From a bacterium (GTDB taxonomy: Bacteria; Methylomirabilota; Methylomirabilia; CAVQYV01): 38,477 nucleotides of DNA. This document shows, piece after piece, positions 18,813 through 31,673 of this stretch (position 1 is its first letter; each line of letters begins with the position of its first letter). Location: positions 1 to 38,477 of the forward strand of contig JAZDMQ010000047.1 of the NCBI GenBank assembly GCA_043800755.1, written 5' to 3'. A program made the position numbers and the translations under genes. Below the pieces are notes generated by a model. The model was not told the DNA's origin. It saw nothing but the letters and a program-made list of their open reading frames with translations, and did not search any database.

Positions 18813-19706
18813 TTACTTCCCCAGGCCCCTGTCCAGATCAGGTCCTGAGGGGTCGGGCTTCCCTTCCTTTTTCCTCCACTCCAGAATCTCCTCCACCGCC
18901 TCCTCGACGGTCAAAGGGATTCCCATGTCCAGGCCCGATTCCTTTAGCCTTTGGAAAAGCGCAGCCAGGAGTGGGGGATCCAGGTTAGAGTCGAAGAAGC
19001 GCTCCGCATTGGAGAAGATATCACGGGGAGAGCCTTGGGAGACGATCTCGCCTCCCTTCACCAGCATGTAGACGGAATCGGCAAAATGAGAAACCAAATT
19101 AACATCGTGAGTGGTCATTACGATGGTCATGCCACCCTGGCCATGGAGTTGGTTGAAGAGGGAGATGAGATCCATGCGAGATTTCGGGTCCAGGCCTTCC
19201 AAAGGTTCATCTAAAATCAACAACTCGGGTCTTAACACCAGGGCACCGGCCAGGGCCACCTTTCTTCTCTCGCCCTCGCTCAGGTAATGGCAGATCTTGC
19301 TCCCGAGGGAAGCGATCCCTACCTGTTCCAGGGATCGCTCGACCATCTCATTCACCTCTTTCTCCGAAAAGCGAAAATTCCGCGGGGAAAAGGCGACATC
19401 GTCCCAAACGGTGGGGGCGATAATCTGGTCGTTCACGTCCTGAAGCAGTACTCCGATGCGGCTGCGAATCTTCTCATACTCTTTCGCCGGATCGTGGCCG
19501 AAGACCAGCACTACCCCTTCGTGAGGCTCCAGGAGGCCCAGGAGGTGGTGGAGCAGGGTTGACTTCCCGGACCCGTTCGGGCCCAGGATCACCACCCGCT
19601 CTCCCTCGTGGACCACAAAGTCCAGGCCACAGAGGTAAACCTGGGTTCGATCCGGGTAGATATGCTTGACGCAGCTCACCTTGATGATCTCTTTTGCGGG
19701 CGTCAT
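18813..19706 (-). CDS. cbiO: ECF transporter ATPase (CbiO/NikO-like)
   Basis: GPNGSGKST, QIIAPTVWDDVAF, LSEGERRKVALAG, LDEP..GLDP, TTHD. Confidence 0.88.
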   Translation of the reverse strand: MTPAKEIIKVSCVKHIYPDRTQVYLCGLDFVVHEGERVVILGPNGSGKSTLLHHLLGLLEPHEGVVLVFGHDPAKEYEKIRSRIGVLLQDVNDQIIAPTVWDDVAFSPRNFRFSEKEVNEMVERSLEQVGIASLGSKICHYLSEGERRKVALAGALVLRPELLILDEPLEGLDPKSRMDLISLFNQLHGQGGMTIVMTTHDVNLVSHFADSVYMLVKGGEIVSQGSPRDIFSNAERFFDSNLDPPLLAALFQRLKESGLDMGIPLTVEEAVEEILEWRKKEGKPDPSGPDLDRGLGK

Positions 19707-20429
19707 TCAGCCTCCTATCTTCAAGACCAGAGAGATCGTCAGCAGGCCCAGGCCGACCAGGAAGGGGAGCCAGTCGCCCCGCCCCACCCGGAGGTGGGCA
19801 GAGGGCACGATTTGCCCTCGATAACCCCGCAGGTTCATCGCATCGTAGAGCCTCTGGCTCTTCTCGTATGAGAAAACGAATAGGCCCCCCAGGCCCAGGG
19901 CCACATTTCTCAGGTTGGTGGAGACCCGGAAGGAGGATAGCCCGCCCCGCAGCCGGATGGCGCTGAAGAAGCGATCCACCAGTTCCAGTAGAACGAAAAA
20001 GAGACGATAGGCCAGTAAGAGGCCATCGGAGAGGATCCGCGGCATAAGGTGGGATGCCAGACCAAAGACCTGGGGATAGCTGGTGGTGCTCAGGAGGGTG
20101 AGGAGGGCCATGGCGGCAGCCTGGGCCTTCATGATGATCAACAAGGGCCTCTGCCAGCCTCCATCAAACTGGGAGAGGGCGAAGAGGAAGGCGAAGGCAG
20201 CCGGGTAGGCGGCCAGGGCCATCATCCGGAGGACGGGCAGATGGGCCAGGGCGATCAGGATCAGGCCCAGGAGATAGATTCCCAAGAGGAGTCGCAGGTC
20301 AGAGGCAATGATGATGGAGAAGAGGGTCGCCCCCATCAGGAAAACCTTGGAGGCAGGAGACGCCAGGTGCAGGAGGCTCTTGCCCTCATAGGCCCAGCGA
20401 TCGATAGCGGAGAGGTCTAAGTGGGCCAT
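19707..20429 (-). CDS. cbiQ: ECF transporter T component (CbiQ/NikQ-like)
   Basis: S.LH...P..K N-terminus, TM helices, AIRLRGG and AMNLRGY coupling motifs. Confidence 0.85.
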   Translation of the reverse strand: MAHLDLSAIDRWAYEGKSLLHLASPASKVFLMGATLFSIIIASDLRLLLGIYLLGLILIALAHLPVLRMMALAAYPAAFAFLFALSQFDGGWQRPLLIIMKAQAAAMALLTLLSTTSYPQVFGLASHLMPRILSDGLLLAYRLFFVLLELVDRFFSAIRLRGGLSSFRVSTNLRNVALGLGGLFVFSYEKSQRLYDAMNLRGYRGQIVPSAHLRVGRGDWLPFLVGLGLLTISLVLKIGG

Positions 20430-20439
20430 TCGTCACCCC

Positions 20440-21177
20440 TCAAGAAGAGATCATCTCCGGCTTGACCTGCCGGAGGAAGCCGACGATGAAACCGACCACC
20501 AGGGCCTCCAGGATCCAGCCGATCAGGCCCAGAAGATAGGCCCCCTCCGCGAAGGTGGCCAAAGAGAGGGTAGGCTGGGGGGCCTCGGTCTCTGATTTAC
20601 CCTCATGGCCTTGGTGGTGGCCCGGGCCATGAAAGGAGAGGAGACCTCCCTCACCCGAGTGTCCTATCTCCGGGAGTTCATGCACCCTGACCGGGTCGAG
20701 GCGAGCCAGTCCGACCAGGCCAATGACTAAAGAGGTGGTGAGGAAAAGGGTGAGGATGACAGACAGAGCTGCGGCCAGACCAGGCTTCAATAGCCTCTTG
20801 CCCAGGCGGAAGAGCCAATACCCGGAAAAGGTCTCCAGTCCTAAGATCAGGGTGTTGAGGCCCACCACCGTCAGGCCGCCATGGCCCACCAGGCCGAGCA
20901 TGAAGTTCACCAGGAAGGCGGCGAGGAAGGCCATGGCCGGGCCCAAGAGGATGCCGGCCAATACCGAGAGGTTCAAGTGATAGGCGATGGGGATGACTTC
21001 CAGACTCATCCCGATGAGCATCATCGCCGCGGTAAACCCTAAGAGGGGAAGTTTCTTTCTCAGGTCCGCCTTTCTGGCTTGCCTCAGGGCGAGGGAGAGC
21101 AGGAGGATCATGAGGGCAAGCCCCATCAGCCATAACCAGACAGGCAGCACGCCATCGGGGATGTGCAGGTGTGACAT
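20440..21177 (-). CDS. cbiM: ECF Co/Ni S component (CbiM/NikM-like) with His-rich loop
   Basis: ATG after GGAGGA; MSHLHIPDG, YHL, GHGGLTVVGLN motifs; HGPGHHQGH loop near the C-terminus. Confidence 0.88.
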   Translation of the reverse strand: MSHLHIPDGVLPVWLWLMGLALMILLLSLALRQARKADLRKKLPLLGFTAAMMLIGMSLEVIPIAYHLNLSVLAGILLGPAMAFLAAFLVNFMLGLVGHGGLTVVGLNTLILGLETFSGYWLFRLGKRLLKPGLAAALSVILTLFLTTSLVIGLVGLARLDPVRVHELPEIGHSGEGGLLSFHGPGHHQGHEGKSETEAPQPTLSLATFAEGAYLLGLIGWILEALVVGFIVGFLRQVKPEMISS

Positions 21178-21351
21178 GACTCCTCCAAGTTCTAACCGAA
21201 AAGGTCCCCGGGATCGTGTCCATTCGCCCATTGCCGGGGCGATGATGGGGCGGGCAAGACCCAATGCTGCGCCAGGCCCGCTTGTCCAGGCCGCTCTCGG
21301 GTCGAGCTTCTTTTCTTAGCACAAAAGCCGCCTTGACACAATCTCAAAAAT

Positions 21352-22030: not shown

Positions 22031-23020
22031 ATGGACAAGCAGGAGAGGGTCAGGGCGACCCTGATGGGGGAGGTCATCGACCGCCCCCCAGTGAGCTTCT
22101 GGCGGCACTTCTATGGAAAGGAGGACTCCGCCTCTGGGCTGGCTGAGGCCATGCTGGCCTTTCAGCGGCGATTCGATTGGGACTTTGTGAAGGTCAACCC
22201 GCGGGCCTCCTATCATGGAGAGGGGTGGGGTTTGAAGGTGAGGTTTCGGAAAGAGCAGGGCCTCAAGCCGGAGAGGATCGCTCACCCCATCAAGGACCCC
22301 CACGACTGGGAGAGGATCAAGGCCCTCTTGCCGGAGGAGGGCGCCCTGGGCCAACAACTGGAGGCCTTGGCCCGCATCCGCGAGGGACTGGGACCCGAGG
22401 TGCCCATGGTCCAGACCCTCTTTACCCCCCTCTCCATCGCGGGGGATCTGGTGGAATCCCCTGGCCAACTCCTCCGGGACCTGGGGGAGCACCAGGAGGC
22501 GGTTCACCACGCCCTGCGGGAGATTGCCTCGACCTGCTCCCTTTACGCACGCGCTTGTCTTCAGGCGGGCGCGGACGGAATCTTTTTGGCCACTACCGAG
22601 TGGGCCAGCCGCGACCTCCTCAGCTTTGCCCAGTACCTGGAGTTTGGCAGGCCCTACGATCTTCAAGTCCTGTCCGGGGCCGCGGAGGGCTGGTTCAACA
22701 TCCTCCATGTCTGTGGGCGCCACAATATGCTCCAAGGACTTCTGGATTATCCGGTGCAGGCCTTCAATTGGGCAGCCACTGATCCGACTAATCCCTCCCT
22801 AAGAGAGATATTGAGTCTTACCGGGAAGGCTGCGATCGGAGGCATCACTGAAGATACCACCCTCCACCATGGATCCTTAGAGGATCTGAAGAATGAGGTG
22901 GAAAAGGCAAAGGAGCAGGGTTTTGGCAAGAAGTGGATGCTGGGCCCCGGCTGTGCGATCCCGGTCGAGGTCCCGGAGGAGAACCTGAGGATGCTTCGCC
23001 AGGAGATCGAGAGGCGGTGA
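22031..23020 (+). CDS. Uroporphyrinogen decarboxylase-superfamily protein (not canonical HemE)
   Basis: DRPPVSFWRHF, QTLFTP, AGADGIF, ILHVCG, LGPGCAIP; lacks the HemE MRQAGR motif. Confidence 0.82.
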   Translation: MDKQERVRATLMGEVIDRPPVSFWRHFYGKEDSASGLAEAMLAFQRRFDWDFVKVNPRASYHGEGWGLKVRFRKEQGLKPERIAHPIKDPHDWERIKALLPEEGALGQQLEALARIREGLGPEVPMVQTLFTPLSIAGDLVESPGQLLRDLGEHQEAVHHALREIASTCSLYARACLQAGADGIFLATTEWASRDLLSFAQYLEFGRPYDLQVLSGAAEGWFNILHVCGRHNMLQGLLDYPVQAFNWAATDPTNPSLREILSLTGKAAIGGITEDTTLHHGSLEDLKNEVEKAKEQGFGKKWMLGPGCAIPVEVPEENLRMLRQEIERR

Positions 23021-24884: not shown

Positions 24885-25862
24885 TCAAATGGTTGGGAGT
24901 CTGTCAGAAGGCTGGGCGGGTGAGGGCTCCTCTTGGGGAGGGGCGAGGCCGTAGCTGTTGATCAGCCCCCTCATCTCTTGATCTTCAGGGATCTTGCGAT
25001 CGAGTGGGGTCAAGCGGGAATGATGGGAGATGACCTTCTTCTCCTGGTTTAGGTGAAGGTAGAACTCCCCCAAGTGGGTCCCCTTGGTCCCGGCGGAGAG
25101 AATGAAGGTCTCCCTGACCTGCACCGGCGGATCGATGATCCCCATGGCCCAGGCCAGGACGATCAGATGGATGCCGGGGACCTTGTCTGCCAGCTCCGTC
25201 GCCTCCTCCATGGTGATATGTCCGAGCACGACGATGAGATCGACCTCCTGGCGCAGCTTGGGAACGATCTCTTTGGCCACTCCAACACAATCCCCCACCA
25301 ATAGCTCTTTGTCCTCGGGTTTGGACTTCGGGGGATGGTAGAGGCTGGACATGAGACCCAGGACCCCCACCTTGATCCCCCCCAAATCTTTGATGATGTA
25401 GGGCGTGGTGAAGGGCTTCCCATCCTCCGCCCTGGTCAGATTGGCACATAACAGGGGGACCTTCCATTCCTCGGTCTGGCCCTTGATGAAATTCTGGCCG
25501 TAGGAAAGCTCCCTCGCCCCGAGGTTGTAGGCATCGTATCCCAGCTTTCCCATGGCCTGCACCATCAGCCTGGCCTTTTTTCTTTCGATGGGCATGAAGG
25601 GGCCAAAGGCATCCCCAGTCTCCAGGAGGAGGACCTTGCCCTCCTTTTGCTGGATTTCTTTTATCTTGGTCGCTCGCCGGGCCAGCCCGCCCAGCTTGCT
25701 CCGTAGTCAGCCGCAGGGCTCCACATTGCCATGGGTCTCCCCGGTGTAGAGGATGACCAGGCGGTCGGTTGCCCTCTCCTCTCCCGCGTAGCAGGGAAAA
25801 AGGGGGATCCAGAGCAGCACGAGAGCAGGCAAGATGGTCAATATTCGCATCAACTTCCTCAT
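24885..25862 (-). CDS. Probable secreted UshA-like (5'-nucleotidase-fold) selenoprotein, 325 aa, Sec at codon 52
   Basis: The listed 236-aa ORF extends in frame through one TGA (25709-25707) to ATG 25862: signal peptide, ILYTGETHGNVEPCG-U-LRSKLGGLARRAT, LLETGD, LGYDAYNLG, LLCANL, KVGVLG, VVLGH. Confidence 0.85.
25672..25699 (-). promoter_or_regulatory. Putative bacterial SECIS hairpin
   Basis: 11 nt after UGA: stem GCUGGGC/GCCCGGC, G-rich loop GGGCUG, with a lower GC/GC extension beyond an AA/GA internal loop. Confidence 0.7.
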
Positions 25863-26095: not shown

Positions 26096-27118
26096 GTGGA
26101 AAAGAGAAGGTTGGGCCGGACCGGACTGGAGGTGACGCAGATCGGGTTCGGGGGGATCCCCATCGATAAGAAACCCCGGGGCGAGGCGGAGCGGACCGTC
26201 CAGAGGGCAATCGATCTGGGGATCAATTTCTTCGACACGGCCCGCGCCTATGGGACCTCAGAGGAAAAGATTGGCTCGGTCTTGAACCGGGGTCGCCATT
26301 CCGTCTATCTGGCCACCAAGACCTACCAGAGGGATCGCTCCGGGGTCCTTTCCGATATCGAGCGGAGCCTCAAGAACCTGCGCGTCAAAAAGATCGACCT
26401 CTATCAGATTCACCAGGTGGATCAGGAGGAGGCCCTGGAGAGGGTCCTGGCGCCCCGGGGGGCTCTGGCCGGGATGAAGGAGGCAAGGGAGGCCAGGAAG
26501 ATTGATTGGATTGGGATCACCGGACATCGGCCCGATATCCTGTGCAAGGCGATTGAGACCGGGGAGTTCGACACCGTGCAGGTCCCGGTGAATATTGTGG
26601 ATCATTATATCTTCGAGCCGGAGAAGGCCCTGCTCCCCCTGGCGCGGAGGCTCAATGTGGGGATCATCGCCATGAAACCCCTGGCCGGGGGGATGCTCAA
26701 GGAGGCCTCCCGGGCCCTGCGCTTCACCCTGGCCCAGGAGGTGGATGTGGTGATCCCCGGCTTGGGCAGCCCGGCAGAGGCGGAGGAGGTCGTCGCCGTG
26801 GGGTCTGCCTACCGGTCTCTCTCGCCATCGGAGATGAGGAGGCTCCTGGCCGAGGCCAAGGAGTTGGGGAGGGAATTCTGTCGCCAGTGCGGATATTGCC
26901 TGCCCTGCCGGGTCGGCATCGACATCCCCAGCATCTTTCGCCTGGAGGGCTACTTCGATCGCTATGATGCGGCCCAATGGGCGAAAGAGCAATACCACTC
27001 CCTAAAGGCCAAGGCAGCTCAGTGCGAGCAGTGCGGGGAGTGCGAATCGCGTTGCCCCTACCAGCTCACCATTATCAAGAAGCTGAAGAAGGCGGAAAGG
27101 AAGCTTACAGGTGGATAG
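26096..27118 (+). CDS. Aldo/keto reductase with C-terminal Fe-S binding domain
   Basis: LGRTGL.V..IGFGG, FDTARAYG, LATK, DLYQIH, MKPLAGG; CRQCGYCLPC and CEQCGECESRCP. Confidence 0.92.
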   Translation: MEKRRLGRTGLEVTQIGFGGIPIDKKPRGEAERTVQRAIDLGINFFDTARAYGTSEEKIGSVLNRGRHSVYLATKTYQRDRSGVLSDIERSLKNLRVKKIDLYQIHQVDQEEALERVLAPRGALAGMKEAREARKIDWIGITGHRPDILCKAIETGEFDTVQVPVNIVDHYIFEPEKALLPLARRLNVGIIAMKPLAGGMLKEASRALRFTLAQEVDVVIPGLGSPAEAEEVVAVGSAYRSLSPSEMRRLLAEAKELGREFCRQCGYCLPCRVGIDIPSIFRLEGYFDRYDAAQWAKEQYHSLKAKAAQCEQCGECESRCPYQLTIIKKLKKAERKLTGG

Positions 27119-28121
27119 ACTCGATCGCCGGCTCCTGGATCTCGTGCAGTCTCACCTCCCCTTGACCGAGCGGCCCTATGAGGGCCTGGGACTCTCTTTG
27201 GGGCTCTCCGAGGAAGAGGTGCTAAGCTGCCTGCAGCGACTCAAGGCGGAGGGGCTCCTCCGCCAGATCGGGGCCATCTTCGACTCTTCGCGCCTCGGCT
27301 ATCAGAGCACCCTCGCCGCCTTCGAGGTCGAGCCAGCGGCGCTGGATAGGGCGGCGCGCCGTCTGAATGAGCATCCAGGGATCAGCCACAACTATGCCCG
27401 CCGCCACCGCTATAACCTCTGGTTCACCCTGACCCTGCCTGGATCCAAGGATTTGGAGACGGAGACGGCCCGCCTGGCCGCGGAGGTCAAGGCGAAGGAT
27501 TCCCTTTATCTCCCGGCCCTGGCCATCTTCAAGATCGGGGTTCGCCTCAAGTTCTCCGAGGAGAATGAGGAGGGGGCCCTGGAAGGCCCAGTGTGGGCGA
27601 GGTCGGAGGCCTCCGCCGCTGCGATCGAGCCCTTATCTCCTTTAGAGATCCGGACGGTGCGGGCCCTGCAAGCCGACCTCCCCCTGGTGCCTCGCCCCTT
27701 TCAGTCCTTGGCGAATCAGGCGAGGATGGAGGAAGGAGAGCTTCTTAATCTGGCCCGGAGGTTTCTGCAGGAAGGGGTCATGCGGCGCTTTGCTGCCACC
27801 TTGCACCACCAGCGCGCTGGCTTCCTCTTTAATTTCCTGACCCTCTGGAGGGTGGCCGACGACCTGGTGGCAGAGTTGGGCAGGCGAATGGCGGCCGTGG
27901 AGGCGGTATCCCATTGCTATCAAAGGTATACCTATCCCCACTGGCCTTATCCTCTATATGCCATGTTCCATGCCCAAACGAAAGAGGAGGCCGATGCCAT
28001 TTTGAAGTCTCTGATCGAGGCCACCGGGCTTTCCGACTGCCTGGTCCTGGAGACCATCAAGGAATATAAAAAGGAAAGGTTCCAATACTTTCAGGAGGGA
28101 AATGATGGGCCTCAAATCTGA
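27111..28121 (+). CDS. Fused siroheme decarboxylase AhbA-AhbB (NirDL-like, Lrp/AsnC fold)
   Basis: Two tandem HTH/AsnC modules: ISHNYAR...NLWFTL and VSHCYQR...[10 protein letters not shown]. Confidence 0.88.
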
Positions 28122-28659
28122 CCGGTGGATCCGCCAGATGGCGAAGGAGGCGGAGATGATCGTGCCCTTTGCCGAGGGACAGGCCCGGGCCGGGGTCATC
28201 TCGTACGGCCTCTCCTCCTATGGCTATGATATGCGCGTCTCCCGGCACTTCAAGGTCCTCCGCCCCGGGGTCCCCTCGCTGCTGGACCCCAAGGCGATCG
28301 AGCCCGATGCCTTCCTGGACCTGGAGGGGGATTTCTGTCTGATCCCGCCCCACTCCTTCATCCTGGGCCGGTCCCTCGAATATTTCAAGATCCCCCGGGA
28401 TGTGCTGACCCTCTGCCTGGGGAAGTCCACCTACGCCCGGTGTGGGATCATCGTCAATGTGACCCCCTTTGAGCCCGCCTGGGAGGGATATGCCACCCTG
28501 GAGATCTCCAACACCGGCCCCTGGCCGGCCAAGATCTATGCGGAGGAGGGCATCGCCCAGATCCTGTTCTTCCAGGGAGACGATCCCTGCGAGGCCTCCT
28601 ATGCCGATAAGAAGGGGCGCTACCAGGCCCAGAAGGAGATCACCCTGCCCAAGCTGTAA
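28102..28659 (+). CDS. dcd: dCTP deaminase
   Basis: [50 protein letters not shown]. Confidence 0.97.
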
Positions 28660-28779
28660 AAGATTCGTTCTGACGCCCACCCCTACGCCCGAGGAAGGGA
28701 ACGCCCATCCCTTGAAAGATCCGATTACCCGCTTCCCACCCAGCCCCTGAGTCCCTCGCCTCTTTTTTCCGAATTGTCC

Positions 28780-28833
28780 TTGACAAACACCATATATTGT
28801 GCAAAATGGGTTTATAGTTACTAAATATAGTGT
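28780..28833 (+). promoter_or_regulatory. nrdR promoter with tandem NrdR boxes
   Basis: TTGACA 28780-28785; ACACCATATATTGTGC (28787-28802) and TTACTAAATATAGTGT (28818-28833) match acaCwAtATaTwGtgt, 31 bp apart. Confidence 0.88.
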
Positions 28834-28881
28834 TTTATCCACCTCTCCTCTTATGCCTGAAAAGGGCTTCACACCCGCTCC

Positions 28882-29337
28882 ATGAAGTGTCCCTTCTGTG
28901 GCCATGATGAAGACCGGGTCATCGACTCCCGCTCCACCGAGGAGGGAACGGCCATCCGGCGGCGCCGTGAGTGTCTGAAGTGCCAGGGCCGCTTCACCTC
29001 TTATGAGCGAGTCGAGACCCACCCTCTAATCGTCATCAAGCAGGACGGCCGGCGAGAGCCCTTCGATCGGCAAAAGGTCCTTTCCGGCATCCGCAAGGCC
29101 TGTCAGAAGCGGCCGATCAGCACCCAGCAGATCGAGGAGATCGTCTCCGAGATCGAAAAGGTGCTCTCGGATCGCATGAAGCGAGAGGTGGACTCTACGA
29201 AGATCGGGGAGTTGATCATGGAACGCCTGCAAGAGTTGGATCAGGTGGCCTATGTCCGCTTCGCCTCGGTCTATCGCAGGTTTGAGGATGCGTCGGATTT
29301 CGTGAAGGAGGTCAAGGGGCTGGTGGTGGAGAATTAG
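28882..29337 (+). CDS. nrdR: Transcriptional repressor NrdR
   Basis: MKCPFC..DRVIDSR, IRRRRECLKC..RFTSYE, ATP cone, VAYVRFASVYRRF. Confidence 0.98.
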   Translation: MKCPFCGHDEDRVIDSRSTEEGTAIRRRRECLKCQGRFTSYERVETHPLIVIKQDGRREPFDRQKVLSGIRKACQKRPISTQQIEEIVSEIEKVLSDRMKREVDSTKIGELIMERLQELDQVAYVRFASVYRRFEDASDFVKEVKGLVVEN

Positions 29338-29377
29338 GCGGCTTTGGTGCAGGCTTGATGAAAGAAAGGAGGGTCCC

Positions 29378-29578
29378 ATGAAGTGCGGAAAGGGTGGAGC
29401 CGATAAGGAGAAGAAGGCGGGCGAGACGACCTGCCCGACCTGCGGCCGTAAGGTGGAGGAACATCAGGTAAGGAAGGCGAGCAAGGCCGGCAAGAAGGAT
29501 TTCTGTTACTTCTGCGAGGGAGAGGTATCCGATATCGGTGGGATGGGTCCCGGCCCGGGAAAGCCCTCCAAGAAATAA
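29378..29578 (+). CDS. Small basic Cys-rich protein (66 aa, two CxxC)
   Basis: AGGAGG RBS, CPTC and CYFC, double TAA stop, host-like codon use. Confidence 0.65.
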   Translation: MKCGKGGADKEKKAGETTCPTCGRKVEEHQVRKASKAGKKDFCYFCEGEVSDIGGMGPGPGKPSKK

Positions 29579-29672
29579 TAAGATGTCCCTATCTCTCAGC
29601 GTTTTCTGGGCAGCAGGCGATGGTGACGGCTGAGCACCAATCCGGAAAGCGCCACTCCCTAGAGGTGAAAAG

Positions 29673-30260
29673 ATGAACAAGATCCACATCAAGACCAATG
29701 CCTTCTTGTATCCCATGCCGGTGACGCTGGTGGGGACCCTCATCGCGGGCCGGCCCAACTTCATGGCCGTGGGCTGGATCGCTCGGGTGAACCTGGATCC
29801 GCCCCTCATCGCGATGGGGCTCAACAAGCGCCATTCCACACCCTCGGCCATTCAGGAAAATCAGGCCTTCAGCGTGAACATCCCGAGCAAGGATCTGATG
29901 GAGGCGACCGATTACTGCGGCCTGGTCTCGGGGAAGGAGGTTGACAAGTCCGGCCTGTTCGAGGTCTTCTACGGCGAGTTGGAGACCGCCCCCCTGATCA
30001 AAGCGTGTCCCCTCTGCCTGGAGTGCCGGCTCTTCGAGACCATCAACTTGCCCACCCACTATCTGTTCCTGGGCGAGATCGCCGGGGCCTACACCGAGGA
30101 GCGCTATCTGACCGACGGCAAGCTCGACATCCGCAAGATGAATCCCTTCGTCCTGACCATGCCGGACAACAACTACTGGGTTGTGGGAGAGCACGCGGGA
30201 AAGGCCTGGAGCCTCGGCAACCGACTCAAAGGCGGGGGAGATAAGAAGGAGGAGAGATGA
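29673..30260 (+). CDS. Flavin reductase / flavoredoxin family protein, copy 1
   Basis: YPMPVTLVG, PNFMAVGW, FSVNIP, DYCGLVSG...DKS, APLIKACPLCLEC, LFLGEI. Confidence 0.92.
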   Translation: MNKIHIKTNAFLYPMPVTLVGTLIAGRPNFMAVGWIARVNLDPPLIAMGLNKRHSTPSAIQENQAFSVNIPSKDLMEATDYCGLVSGKEVDKSGLFEVFYGELETAPLIKACPLCLECRLFETINLPTHYLFLGEIAGAYTEERYLTDGKLDIRKMNPFVLTMPDNNYWVVGEHAGKAWSLGNRLKGGGDKKEER

Positions 30261-30619
30261 TGGACAAGATCAACATTGGAGCCAATTCCCTGTTCTATCC
30301 CATGCCGGTTTCCCTGGTGGGCGCCCTCGTCCAGGGCCGACCTAACTTCCTGGCCGTTGCCTGGGTCTCCCGGGTAAACCTGGACCCGCCCATCGTTGCA
30401 GTGGCCCTCAACAAGGTTCGCCACACGGCGGTGGGCGTGCAGGAGCAGAAGACCTTCAGCGTGAACCTGCCCGGCGTCGACCTGGTAAAGGAGACCGATT
30501 ACTGTGGCCTGGTCTCGGGGAAGGAGGTTGACAAGTCCAGCCTGTTCGAGGTCTTCTACGGCGAGTTGGAGACCGCCCCCCTGATCAAAGCGTGTCCCCT
30601 CTGCCTGGAGTGCCGGCTC
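29906..30619 (+). repeat. 127-bp near-identical direct repeat within the two flavin reductase genes
   Basis: 29906-30032 vs 30493-30619, two mismatches by eye. Confidence 0.9.
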
Positions 30620-30832
30620 ATCCAGACCGTCACCCTGCCCACCCACCATCTGTTCCTGGGCGAGGTGGTGGGGGCCTACACCGAGGAGCGCTATCTGACC
30701 GACGGCAAGCCCGATATGGAGAAGATTCGGCCCTTCCTCTTCTCCCGGGCGGACAATAGCTACTGGACCGTGGGCGAGCGGTTGGCGAAGGCCTACAGCA
30801 TCGGCAAGCAGGTCCAGGGCGAGTGGAAATGA
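30257..30832 (+). CDS. Flavin reductase / flavoredoxin family protein, copy 2
   Basis: Same motifs as copy 1; AGGAGG RBS; start overlaps the copy 1 stop. Confidence 0.92.
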   Translation: MMDKINIGANSLFYPMPVSLVGALVQGRPNFLAVAWVSRVNLDPPIVAVALNKVRHTAVGVQEQKTFSVNLPGVDLVKETDYCGLVSGKEVDKSSLFEVFYGELETAPLIKACPLCLECRLIQTVTLPTHHLFLGEVVGAYTEERYLTDGKPDMEKIRPFLFSRADNSYWTVGERLAKAYSIGKQVQGEWK

Positions 30833-30856
30833 ATACCCGCCGGCGTCCGGCACCCT

Positions 30857-31330
30857 GTGATCTCGGCGAAGGGAATTGAAATGGACCTGAAGCCCATCGG
30901 CAACATCAAATCCCCGGTGGTCGAGGCCCTGGACGAAGGTTGGGGCAGCGTGGTCTCTGAAATCCACCTGGATCCATCCTATGCGCCGGGACTGCGAGGC
31001 CTGGATGGGTTTTCCCATGTGATCGTCCTCTTTTTCATGCATCAGGCCACCTTCGATCCGGCCCATCACCTGGTCCGGCGGCCTCAGGGGCGTGCGGATA
31101 TGCCCGAGCTGGGCATCTTCGTCCAGCGCGCGAGACATCGGCCCAATCCCCTCGGCATCACCGCGGCCGAGCTGCTCTCGATCGAGGGGAATGTGGTCAG
31201 GGTCAGGGGGCTGGATGCCATCGACGGGACCCCGGTCCTGGACCTCAAGCCCTATTTCCCGGCCTTCGACCAGCGTGACCAGGCGCGGGCGCCGGAATGG
31301 GTTGGTCGCCTGATGGAGCATTACTTCTGA
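30857..31330 (+). CDS. trmO: TrmO/TsaA-like tRNA m6t6A37 methyltransferase (start may be ATG 30881)
   Basis: LKPIG, GL.GFSHVIVLF..H, GIF..R..HRPNPLG, GLDAIDGTPVLDLKPY. Confidence 0.9.
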   Translation: MISAKGIEMDLKPIGNIKSPVVEALDEGWGSVVSEIHLDPSYAPGLRGLDGFSHVIVLFFMHQATFDPAHHLVRRPQGRADMPELGIFVQRARHRPNPLGITAAELLSIEGNVVRVRGLDAIDGTPVLDLKPYFPAFDQRDQARAPEWVGRLMEHYF

Positions 31331-31364
31331 GGTGAACCCTTTCCCCAAGAGGAGGGCAGGGAAG

Positions 31365-31673
31365 ATGAAGGCAAGAAGGGCAATCGTTGCTGGGCTGATC
31401 CTCATGGTTTGCATGATGGCCGCCTCCCCGCTGTTTGCTGGGGGAGATAAGCTTCAGATTCAAAAGTCCGATACGATCAAGGATGTCCTGGAGAGGCACG
31501 CGGGGCAAGGGATCACCTTGCGACTGCAGTCCGGTGAAGAGATGAGCGGGACCCTGAGCAAGGTGGGGGACCAGGTGGTTCACCTGTCAGGGCTTTCCGG
31601 AAGGGATTTTTACGATGCCGTGATTCGCATCGATGGGATCTCTGCCGTGATCATCAGAGCGAGAAATAAATAG
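31365..31673 (+). CDS. Small exported hypothetical protein
   Basis: Signal peptide MKARRAIVAGLILMVCMMAASPLFA; beta-rich mature domain; AGGAGG upstream. Confidence 0.8.
   Translation: MKARRAIVAGLILMVCMMAASPLFAGGDKLQIQKSDTIKDVLERHAGQGITLRLQSGEEMSGTLSKVGDQVVHLSGLSGRDFYDAVIRIDGISAVIIRARNK

Follow-up and report, generated by a model that had tools for sequence, protein, structure and literature searches.

Does the in-frame TGA at positions 25709-25707 of a contig from a bacterium of the Methylomirabilota end a short open reading frame (ORF), or does it encode selenocysteine (Sec) within a longer gene? The contig (JAZDMQ010000047.1, GenBank assembly GCA_043800755.1) was analysed over positions 1 to 38,477, a stretch that we call the window. 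On the minus strand between 24885 and 25862, ORF calling with translation table 11 splits the frame into an ORF of 51 amino acids (aa; 25707-25862) and one of 236 aa (24885-25595). The latter, as reported by gene callers (P0002), starts at Met90 of the longer frame, inside a domain. Translated with TGA as Sec (U), the same frame runs from an ATG at 25862-25860 to a stop TGA at 24887-24885 and gives 325 residues with a single internal TGA, at codon 52. An initial annotation had proposed that a selenoprotein with a C-G-U motif lay hidden here. The proposal has stood: the TGA is conserved, homologues have Cys in its place, a hairpin resembling a selenocysteine insertion sequence (SECIS) follows it and the genome holds Sec machinery. 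We conclude with considerable confidence that 24885-25862 on the minus strand is one gene, that it specifies an exported single-domain 'UshA-like CxU' selenoprotein and that UGA at codon 52 is decoded as Sec.

Conservation and decoding of the TGA at codon 52

The predicted Sec residue (25707-25709, minus strand) is the last of P49-C50-G51-U52, in which Cys50 is the first Cys of the motif. The related DNA loci available for comparison were four metagenome contigs of the same species (L049-L052; 98-99% identity), three further metagenome contigs and a second NC10 genome at 71-74% identity (L053-L056), and a paralogue at 56% identity in that second NC10 genome (L057). In 8/8 of the related loci examined the TGA follows (E/H)-P-C-G. 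On both sides of it, over 24 codons upstream and 37 downstream, lineages that are 56-74% identical conserve the protein while accumulating many synonymous changes; between the window and L055 the 24 upstream codons differ by 10 synonymous and 3 non-synonymous changes. The TGA also held when the letters at 25707-25709 were checked in sequencing runs. Contigs of DNA runs X1 and X15 bridge it unchanged, and it is unchanged in RNA-library contigs X14 (25417-25751) and X18 (25642-25792), which come from two runs of one study and do not in themselves prove transcription; no meaning is attached to the gaps in RNA-library cover at 25112-25189.

Protein homologues tell the same story from the other side. 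A HMMER search of 1.84 billion representatives returned 12,319 matches at E <= 0.001, classical enzymes included, and the best 150 of these, aligned locally, gave 168 domain rows, 153 of them covering the Sec site. Cys occupies the residue-52 column in 108 of the 153, and 101 have C-x-C at residues 50/52; P0022 and P0024 read E-P-C-G-C at the site. Classical enzymes with DxH/GNH account for the 45 rows that lack Cys. The expectation of Cys or TGA at codon 52 in homologues was thus borne out both in proteins and in DNA.

The genome (2.43 Mb) carries the machinery for Sec: selA (568 bits), selB (371 bits), selD (394 bits) and a tRNA-Sec with anticodon tca (found with ARAGORN) are all present, each above its cut-off. 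The selD of this genome (contig C131:8011-8934, L009) itself has TGA at the canonical G-x-G-U-x-C-K site. TGA serves as the ordinary stop in 7/11 nearby genes, the window gene included, and therefore the TGA code is not reassigned in this genome.

A hairpin predicted to start 11 nucleotides (nt) after the UGA was found exactly there. The stem-loop as a whole occupies 25668-25702 on the minus strand. Behind an 11-nt spacer (25706-25696) it has a G+C-rich core stem of 7 base pairs (bp; 25695-25689 with 25682-25676) and a 6-nt apical loop, GGGCUG (25688-25683), that begins 18 nt past the UGA, together with two short outer helices. Published rules for bacterial SECIS elements call for a loop of 3-9 nt, a stem of 4-16 bp, a G in the first two loop positions, a distance of 16-37 nt from the UGA and a minimum free energy <= -7.5 kcal/mol, as given in PMC13188914. 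The hairpin satisfies all four rules, with its 6-nt loop opening on GG, 7-bp stem, 18-nt spacing and -13.9 kcal/mol for the core. The stem is unchanged in 8/8 loci, and the third codon positions within the loop vary. We also observed that the hairpin 3' of the selD TGA has a loop starting GGUCU, which resembles the loops in three orthologues of the window gene.

Several observations weigh against reading too much into this element, or into the Sec assignment itself. The 76-nt fold is no stronger than shuffled sequence (z = -0.89), so that the hairpin alone amounts to no more than chance and takes its weight from position, conservation and context. Since the stem is invariant, the eight loci offer no compensatory changes. 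The hairpin also encodes K-L-G-G-L-A-R-R, a motif conserved in the Cys homologues too, so that its conservation may be owed in part to constraint on the protein. Rfam gave no match to a SECIS model, either across the whole window at the gathering score or within 25550-25800 at E <= 10; the only Rfam matches are one tRNA and two chance matches. Because compensatory change is lacking and the stem encodes a conserved peptide, we treat the SECIS evidence as supportive and not as decisive. Selenium has been experimentally demonstrated in no member of the family, the window protein included. For the hairpin comparison, a C-x-C motif was also sought in the DNA of relatives from the same class (L031-L048) and none was found, all of them being classical enzymes; contig C9 of another genome from the same family (G001) is likewise classical, with no C-x-C form.

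If the TGA were instead a true stop, the locus would be a decayed or truncated 5'-nucleotidase-like gene from which either the 236-aa ORF beginning at Met90 or nothing functional is made. Gene callers give that ORF only, TGA is the commonest stop in the region and the catalytic motifs of the protein are degenerate. However, the codons on either side of the TGA show many synonymous changes but a conserved protein, Met90 is not a conserved start, and a conserved G-G-L-A-R-R helix and a G-D motif lie between the TGA and Met90. Given further that Cys stands at the TGA column in most of the aligned domains, that the Sec machinery is present and that a pseudogene would not hold exactly one stop at one column across 5 lineages, we consider a true stop highly improbable. 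Five independent lines, namely conservation, Cys homologues, the SECIS-like element, the machinery and the absence of TGA reassignment, agree on a Sec codon. SelB and tRNA-Sec would then decode the UGA at codon 52, guided by the stem-loop whose start lies 11 nt downstream.

A remodelled 5'-nucleotidase domain

What does the read-through protein look like? It had been noted that the 236-aa ORF lacks both a signal peptide and the first strand of its fold, and reading through the TGA restores them. Residues 1-26 (25785-25862) resemble a signal peptide of the Sec secretion pathway when read by eye, with a basic n-region, a hydrophobic stretch and a C-Y-A end. The AlphaFold2 (AF2) model places a low-confidence helix at residues 2-17 within this segment, and all orthologues have a hydrophobic N-terminus, differing in sequence. 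In the same model the fold opens with a beta strand at residues 33-40. The rest of the protein is a metallophosphatase-type domain of the 5'-nucleotidase N-terminal kind (residues ~33-305; 24948-25766), recognised by its match to NCBIfam family NF041198, by AF2 and by Foldseek, and a Pro-rich C-terminal tail of 20 residues (24888-24947). The AF2 model, built from 86 sequences, has a predicted local distance difference test score (pLDDT) of 93, falling to 65-79 in the tail, and a predicted template modelling score of 0.87. The best PDB matches in Foldseek are the N-domains of CD73 and UshA (E 2.5e-25, query-normalised template modelling score 0.73). The last four residues of the tail (24888-24899) are L-P-T-I in the window protein and L-P-K-I in most orthologues.

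The initial annotation had also described altered metal ligands (ETH, GARE and AWAM), and alignment to the 45 classical domains agrees. In these classical rows the ligands are close to invariant, with D kept in 45/45, H in 44/45, N in 41/45 and H in 42/45. In the window protein the classical DxH has become E42-T-H44, GNHE has become G115-A116-R117-E118 and GHxH has become A237-W238-A-M240, whereas the classical GD (G83-D84) and the His of motif IV (H215) are kept. The equivalent positions in E. coli UshA are, we assume, D41, H43, D84, N116, H117, H217, H252 and Q254. No Pfam family matches the read-through protein at E <= 1, and so neither Metallophos nor 5_nucleotid_C does. The protein stops 20 residues beyond the N-domain, with no 5'-nucleotidase C-terminal substrate-binding domain. 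In this respect the earlier description was correct as to the absence of that domain but measured it against the wrong relatives, which carry a multihaem cytochrome tail instead. Classical 5'-nucleotidases such as UshA of E. coli and human CD73, and also the thiosulfohydrolase SoxB, share the N-terminal metallophosphatase fold with the window protein, which differs from them in its degenerate DxH, GNHE and GHxH motifs as well as in lacking the C-terminal domain; in CD73, Cys residues lie on the loop that aligns with C50/U52. A classical 5'-nucleotidase paralogue of 504 aa, with all motifs intact, is encoded on contig C104 of the same genome. As the Asn ligand, the catalytic His and both His of motif V are lost, the window protein is probably no nucleotidase, and its sequence argues against phosphoester hydrolysis.

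The claim that ORF calling had cut the gene short extends well beyond this contig. All 18 close homologues in the databases (53-75% identity, 223-263 aa) are N-terminally truncated, one of them being an NCBI record labelled solely 'hypothetical protein'. The 16 that were aligned all begin past the TGA; P0011 and P0014, which were left out of the alignment, are likewise short. The whole NC10 clade of this protein is therefore truncated in public databases. What the locus encodes is very probably an exported Sec-containing protein on a disabled 5'-nucleotidase fold, its gene cut short by callers at the UGA.

Place among known selenoproteins

Is this a new family? The best NCBIfam match is NF041198, 'UshA_like_PCGU, UshA-like (seleno)protein' (E 1.3e-54, 185.7 bits, model positions 17-276 of 519). 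The window protein shares with it the P-C-G-U motif, the remodelled 5'-nucleotidase N-domain, the extracytoplasmic location (predicted here) and the alternation of Sec and Cys at the same column. Unlike that family, it lacks ~240 model positions, including a multihaem cytochrome c region at ~399-516, and has no CxxCH. The cut-off of 275 bits is not reached, either by the protein (185.7 bits) or in a genome scan (174.4 bits), because the multihaem cytochrome c tail of the model is missing; NF041198 was built for the cytochrome-fused form, and short forms consequently fall below it. The nature of this tail can be read from two adjacent small multihaem cytochrome c ORFs on contig C16 of the same genome (4046-4396 and 4623-4973; L025 and L024; frames of 177 and 166 aa). 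At 88 and 92 bits they align with positions 399-516 of NF041198, and Pfam assigns them to Cytochrome_C554, so that this part of the model is the multihaem cytochrome c region. These ORFs could be stand-alone counterparts of the tail absent from the window protein.

UshA-like selenoproteins have a longer history. Zhang and Gladyshev (2008; PMC2398784) list 'COG0737 UshA-like, CxU' selenoproteins from ocean metagenomes, with 76 Sec and 92 Cys sequences. Reviews of 2022 and 2026 (PMC9312934, PMC13188914) list them too, the later one giving NF041198 and NF049981. It was held at the outset that such proteins were known without an assigned function, and this is how PMC2398784 and PMC13188914 catalogue them; our literature search found no paper that tests their function. 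The main text of the BSepDB paper (PMC13326102) mentions neither UshA nor Methylomirabilota. NF049981, 'UshA_like_Sel_2', resembles the window protein weakly in the N-terminal part, where residues 35-126 match model positions 1-98 with 60.6 bits, short of the cut-off of 140 bits, and the motif given there is CxxU (PMC13188914), as against CxU here.

A FastTree phylogeny was built from 165 domain rows. It groups the window protein with P0019 and others in a 13-tip clade of single-domain proteins (support 0.88), which includes seven Cys-Gly-Cys forms with lengths of 310-336 aa and five records that are truncated at the N-terminus (P0019, P0179, P0187, P0213 and P0255) and may be Sec forms. The seven (P0128, P0137, P0159, P0183, P0191, P0214 and P0232) are 28-32% identical to the window protein and belong to the same length class with the same C-G-C/U motif. 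They differ in having Cys in place of Sec and other residues at the residual metal-ligand positions, and they are unnamed in the libraries searched. Judged from this nearest clade, the short single-domain architecture is already known. The NF041198 family is already curated and single-domain Cys forms are common, so what we report is a gene-model correction and a short Sec member added to a family catalogued since 2008 (18 years), and no new kind of system. What is specific to the window protein is the free-standing short Sec form in a small NC10 lineage, the unusual residual ligand set and the systematic database truncation.

The lineage is indeed narrow. Among the 61 genomes of the class and 201 of the phylum that were scanned, the TGA form occurs only in the window genome (G000) and in G001; the class scan included G030, with a weak classical match only. 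None of the 201 phylum genomes scores above the NF041198 cut-off, and the search for related loci with a closer alignment returned only one other NC10 genome. Methylomirabilota have recently been reported to have very large selenoproteomes (PMC13188914).

Proposed chemistry at Cys50 and Sec52

Provided that the gene is real, we lean slightly towards a redox mechanism centred on Cys50-Gly-Sec52. The vicinal pair would be the working centre, cycling between the selenol/thiol and selenenylsulfide states and reducing or exchanging a substrate in the periplasm, either a disulfide or a compound that contains sulfur or selenium. The electrons that return the pair to its reduced state would come in trans, from a relay of the thioredoxin/DsbD type or from small multihaem cytochromes. 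In Cys-Gly-Cys tripeptides the two Cys form a disulfide that is strained and redox-active, its potential being near that of protein disulfide isomerase. The redox or electron-transfer reading is suggested by the company that the domain keeps, since relatives carry cytochrome domains or domains with a thioredoxin fold as fusions, and genes for thioredoxin and DsbD adjoin a paralogue. In 20 long homologues, chosen for their length, fusions were to Cytochrome_C554 (11/20), DUF1573 (9/20), DsbA/thioredoxin (4/20) and LysM (3/20). In the second NC10 genome, L057:2199-6427 on contig 1 encodes on one strand a DUF169 protein, the CxU paralogue with its own TGA, a thioredoxin, a thioredoxin-domain protein and a DsbD_TM protein. 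The likeliest role, as far as such sequence comparisons indicate, would be that of a periplasmic thiol/selenol redox site; export, redox mechanism, partners and substrate are what we infer.

This reading has difficulties of its own. Export is argued from an N-terminus read by eye. It is a paralogue in a different genome that has thioredoxin and DsbD genes around it, and two frameshifts interrupt this copy there, from either decay or long-read errors; an intact version of this type of paralogue exists in a metagenome (P0020). The window gene has no adjoining redox partner; of its two neighbours, an aldo-keto reductase/4Fe-4S gene is divergent and a RodZ-like gene convergent. Finally, E42, H44, D84 and H215 are kept, with Met240 where classical enzymes have a metal ligand, so that a metal site with Cys/Sec ligands is possible.

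The last point leads to the main rival of the redox reading, in which Cys50 and Sec52 would be ligands of a remodelled metal centre at the former phosphoesterase site 1, together with E42, H44, D84 and M240. Sec is a metal ligand to Mo or W in formate dehydrogenase and to Ni in [NiFeSe] hydrogenase. The C-G-U motif lies 6-8 residues past the DxH metal motif, on the loop after it; E42, H44 and D84 are kept in 6/6 DNA-derived sequences of the clade, and H215, W238 and M240 in 16/16 aligned proteins. Across the C-x-C clade more widely, site 1 has degenerate ligands, whereas those of site 2 are mostly retained (D84 in 73/101, D/E116 in 88/101, H215 in 82/101 and H238 in 78/101), from which it is probable that in most C-x-C members a metal is still bound beside the Cys pair. 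Yet the window protein reverses this family norm. It has lost site-2 ligands (A116 and W238) and kept site 1, a pattern not expected if Cys/Sec had replaced site-1 ligands. Residues 116/117 are A-R here as against D/E-Q in most C-x-C members, and residues 238/240 are W and M as against H and Q. In addition, dithiol exchange is suggested by the DsbA/thioredoxin fusions and by the thioredoxin and DsbD genes next to the paralogue. We regard metal ligation by the pair as possible but distinctly less probable than redox cycling.

A second alternative retains hydrolysis in another form. The protein would be a residual hydrolase of the SoxB/5'-nucleotidase type, in which a single metal cleaves a sulfur- or selenium-linked group off a carrier (for example a thiosulfonate), with Cys/Sec as acceptor or nucleophile. 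SoxB (TIGR04486) is indeed the second-best NCBIfam match (97.3 bits, model positions 113-362), SoxB structures are retrieved by sequence, and D84, H215, E42 and H44 are kept. However, the SoxB model requires 550 bits, far more than this score; GNHE has Arg for its catalytic His and Ala for its Asn ligand, and motif V has lost both His. The protein also lacks a C-terminal domain for substrate binding, and there are no sox genes nearby. We think such a hydrolase unlikely.

A precedent for an exported, haem-wired Sec enzyme acting on a sulfur compound is MccSep/ExtKL, a multihaem selenoprotein that reduces polysulfide in the periplasm of Geobacter (PMC13510729). Its fold and family (NF040886) are unrelated, and the likeness is one of analogy only. 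We had considered this paper as a description of the UshA-like family and rejected it, as the text available covers ExtKL/MccSep and has no mention of nucleotidase or UshA.

More speculatively, the C-x-C/C-x-U branch of the 5'-nucleotidase superfamily might be a large class of extracytoplasmic redox enzymes in which the dimetal site has given way to a Cys/Sec redox centre, possibly metal-assisted, that is fed by multihaem cytochromes or thioredoxin/DsbD and acts on sulfur or selenium compounds, much as their relative SoxB acts on a sulfur adduct. We offer this tentatively and think it may well prove wrong. If it were true, the NC10 protein would be a minimal free-standing Sec catalytic module, and its ligand set of Glu, His, Asp, His and Met with Cys and Sec would mark a distinct chemistry. 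In any case, a single-domain soluble form of ~300 residues would be the easiest family member to express and assay.

The arrangement of the neighbours of the window gene is kept in orthologues at 71% identity, which points to purifying selection and vertical descent of the gene. Its flanks hold a CbiM/CbiQ/ATP-binding cassette set for metal uptake of the energy-coupling factor type (18813-21264, minus strand), a uroporphyrinogen decarboxylase gene (22031-23020, plus strand) and a gene for a sirohaem decarboxylase of the NirDL/AhbAB type (27111-28121, plus strand). These genes serve haem and tetrapyrrole housekeeping; orthologous contigs keep them in synteny, but they do not form one operon with the selenoprotein gene. 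Three minus-strand ORFs, at 28057-29022, 29312-29851 and 30173-31414 (321, 179 and 413 aa), have no Pfam match at E <= 0.001. Opposite the first of these, on the other strand, lie the end of the NirDL gene and the start of an NrdR gene, both overlapping with it, so that it may not be a real gene; a frame homologous to it is kept in related contigs at 60-93% identity. A tRNA gene lies at 1854-1927 on the plus strand (Rfam RF00005, 71.8 bits).

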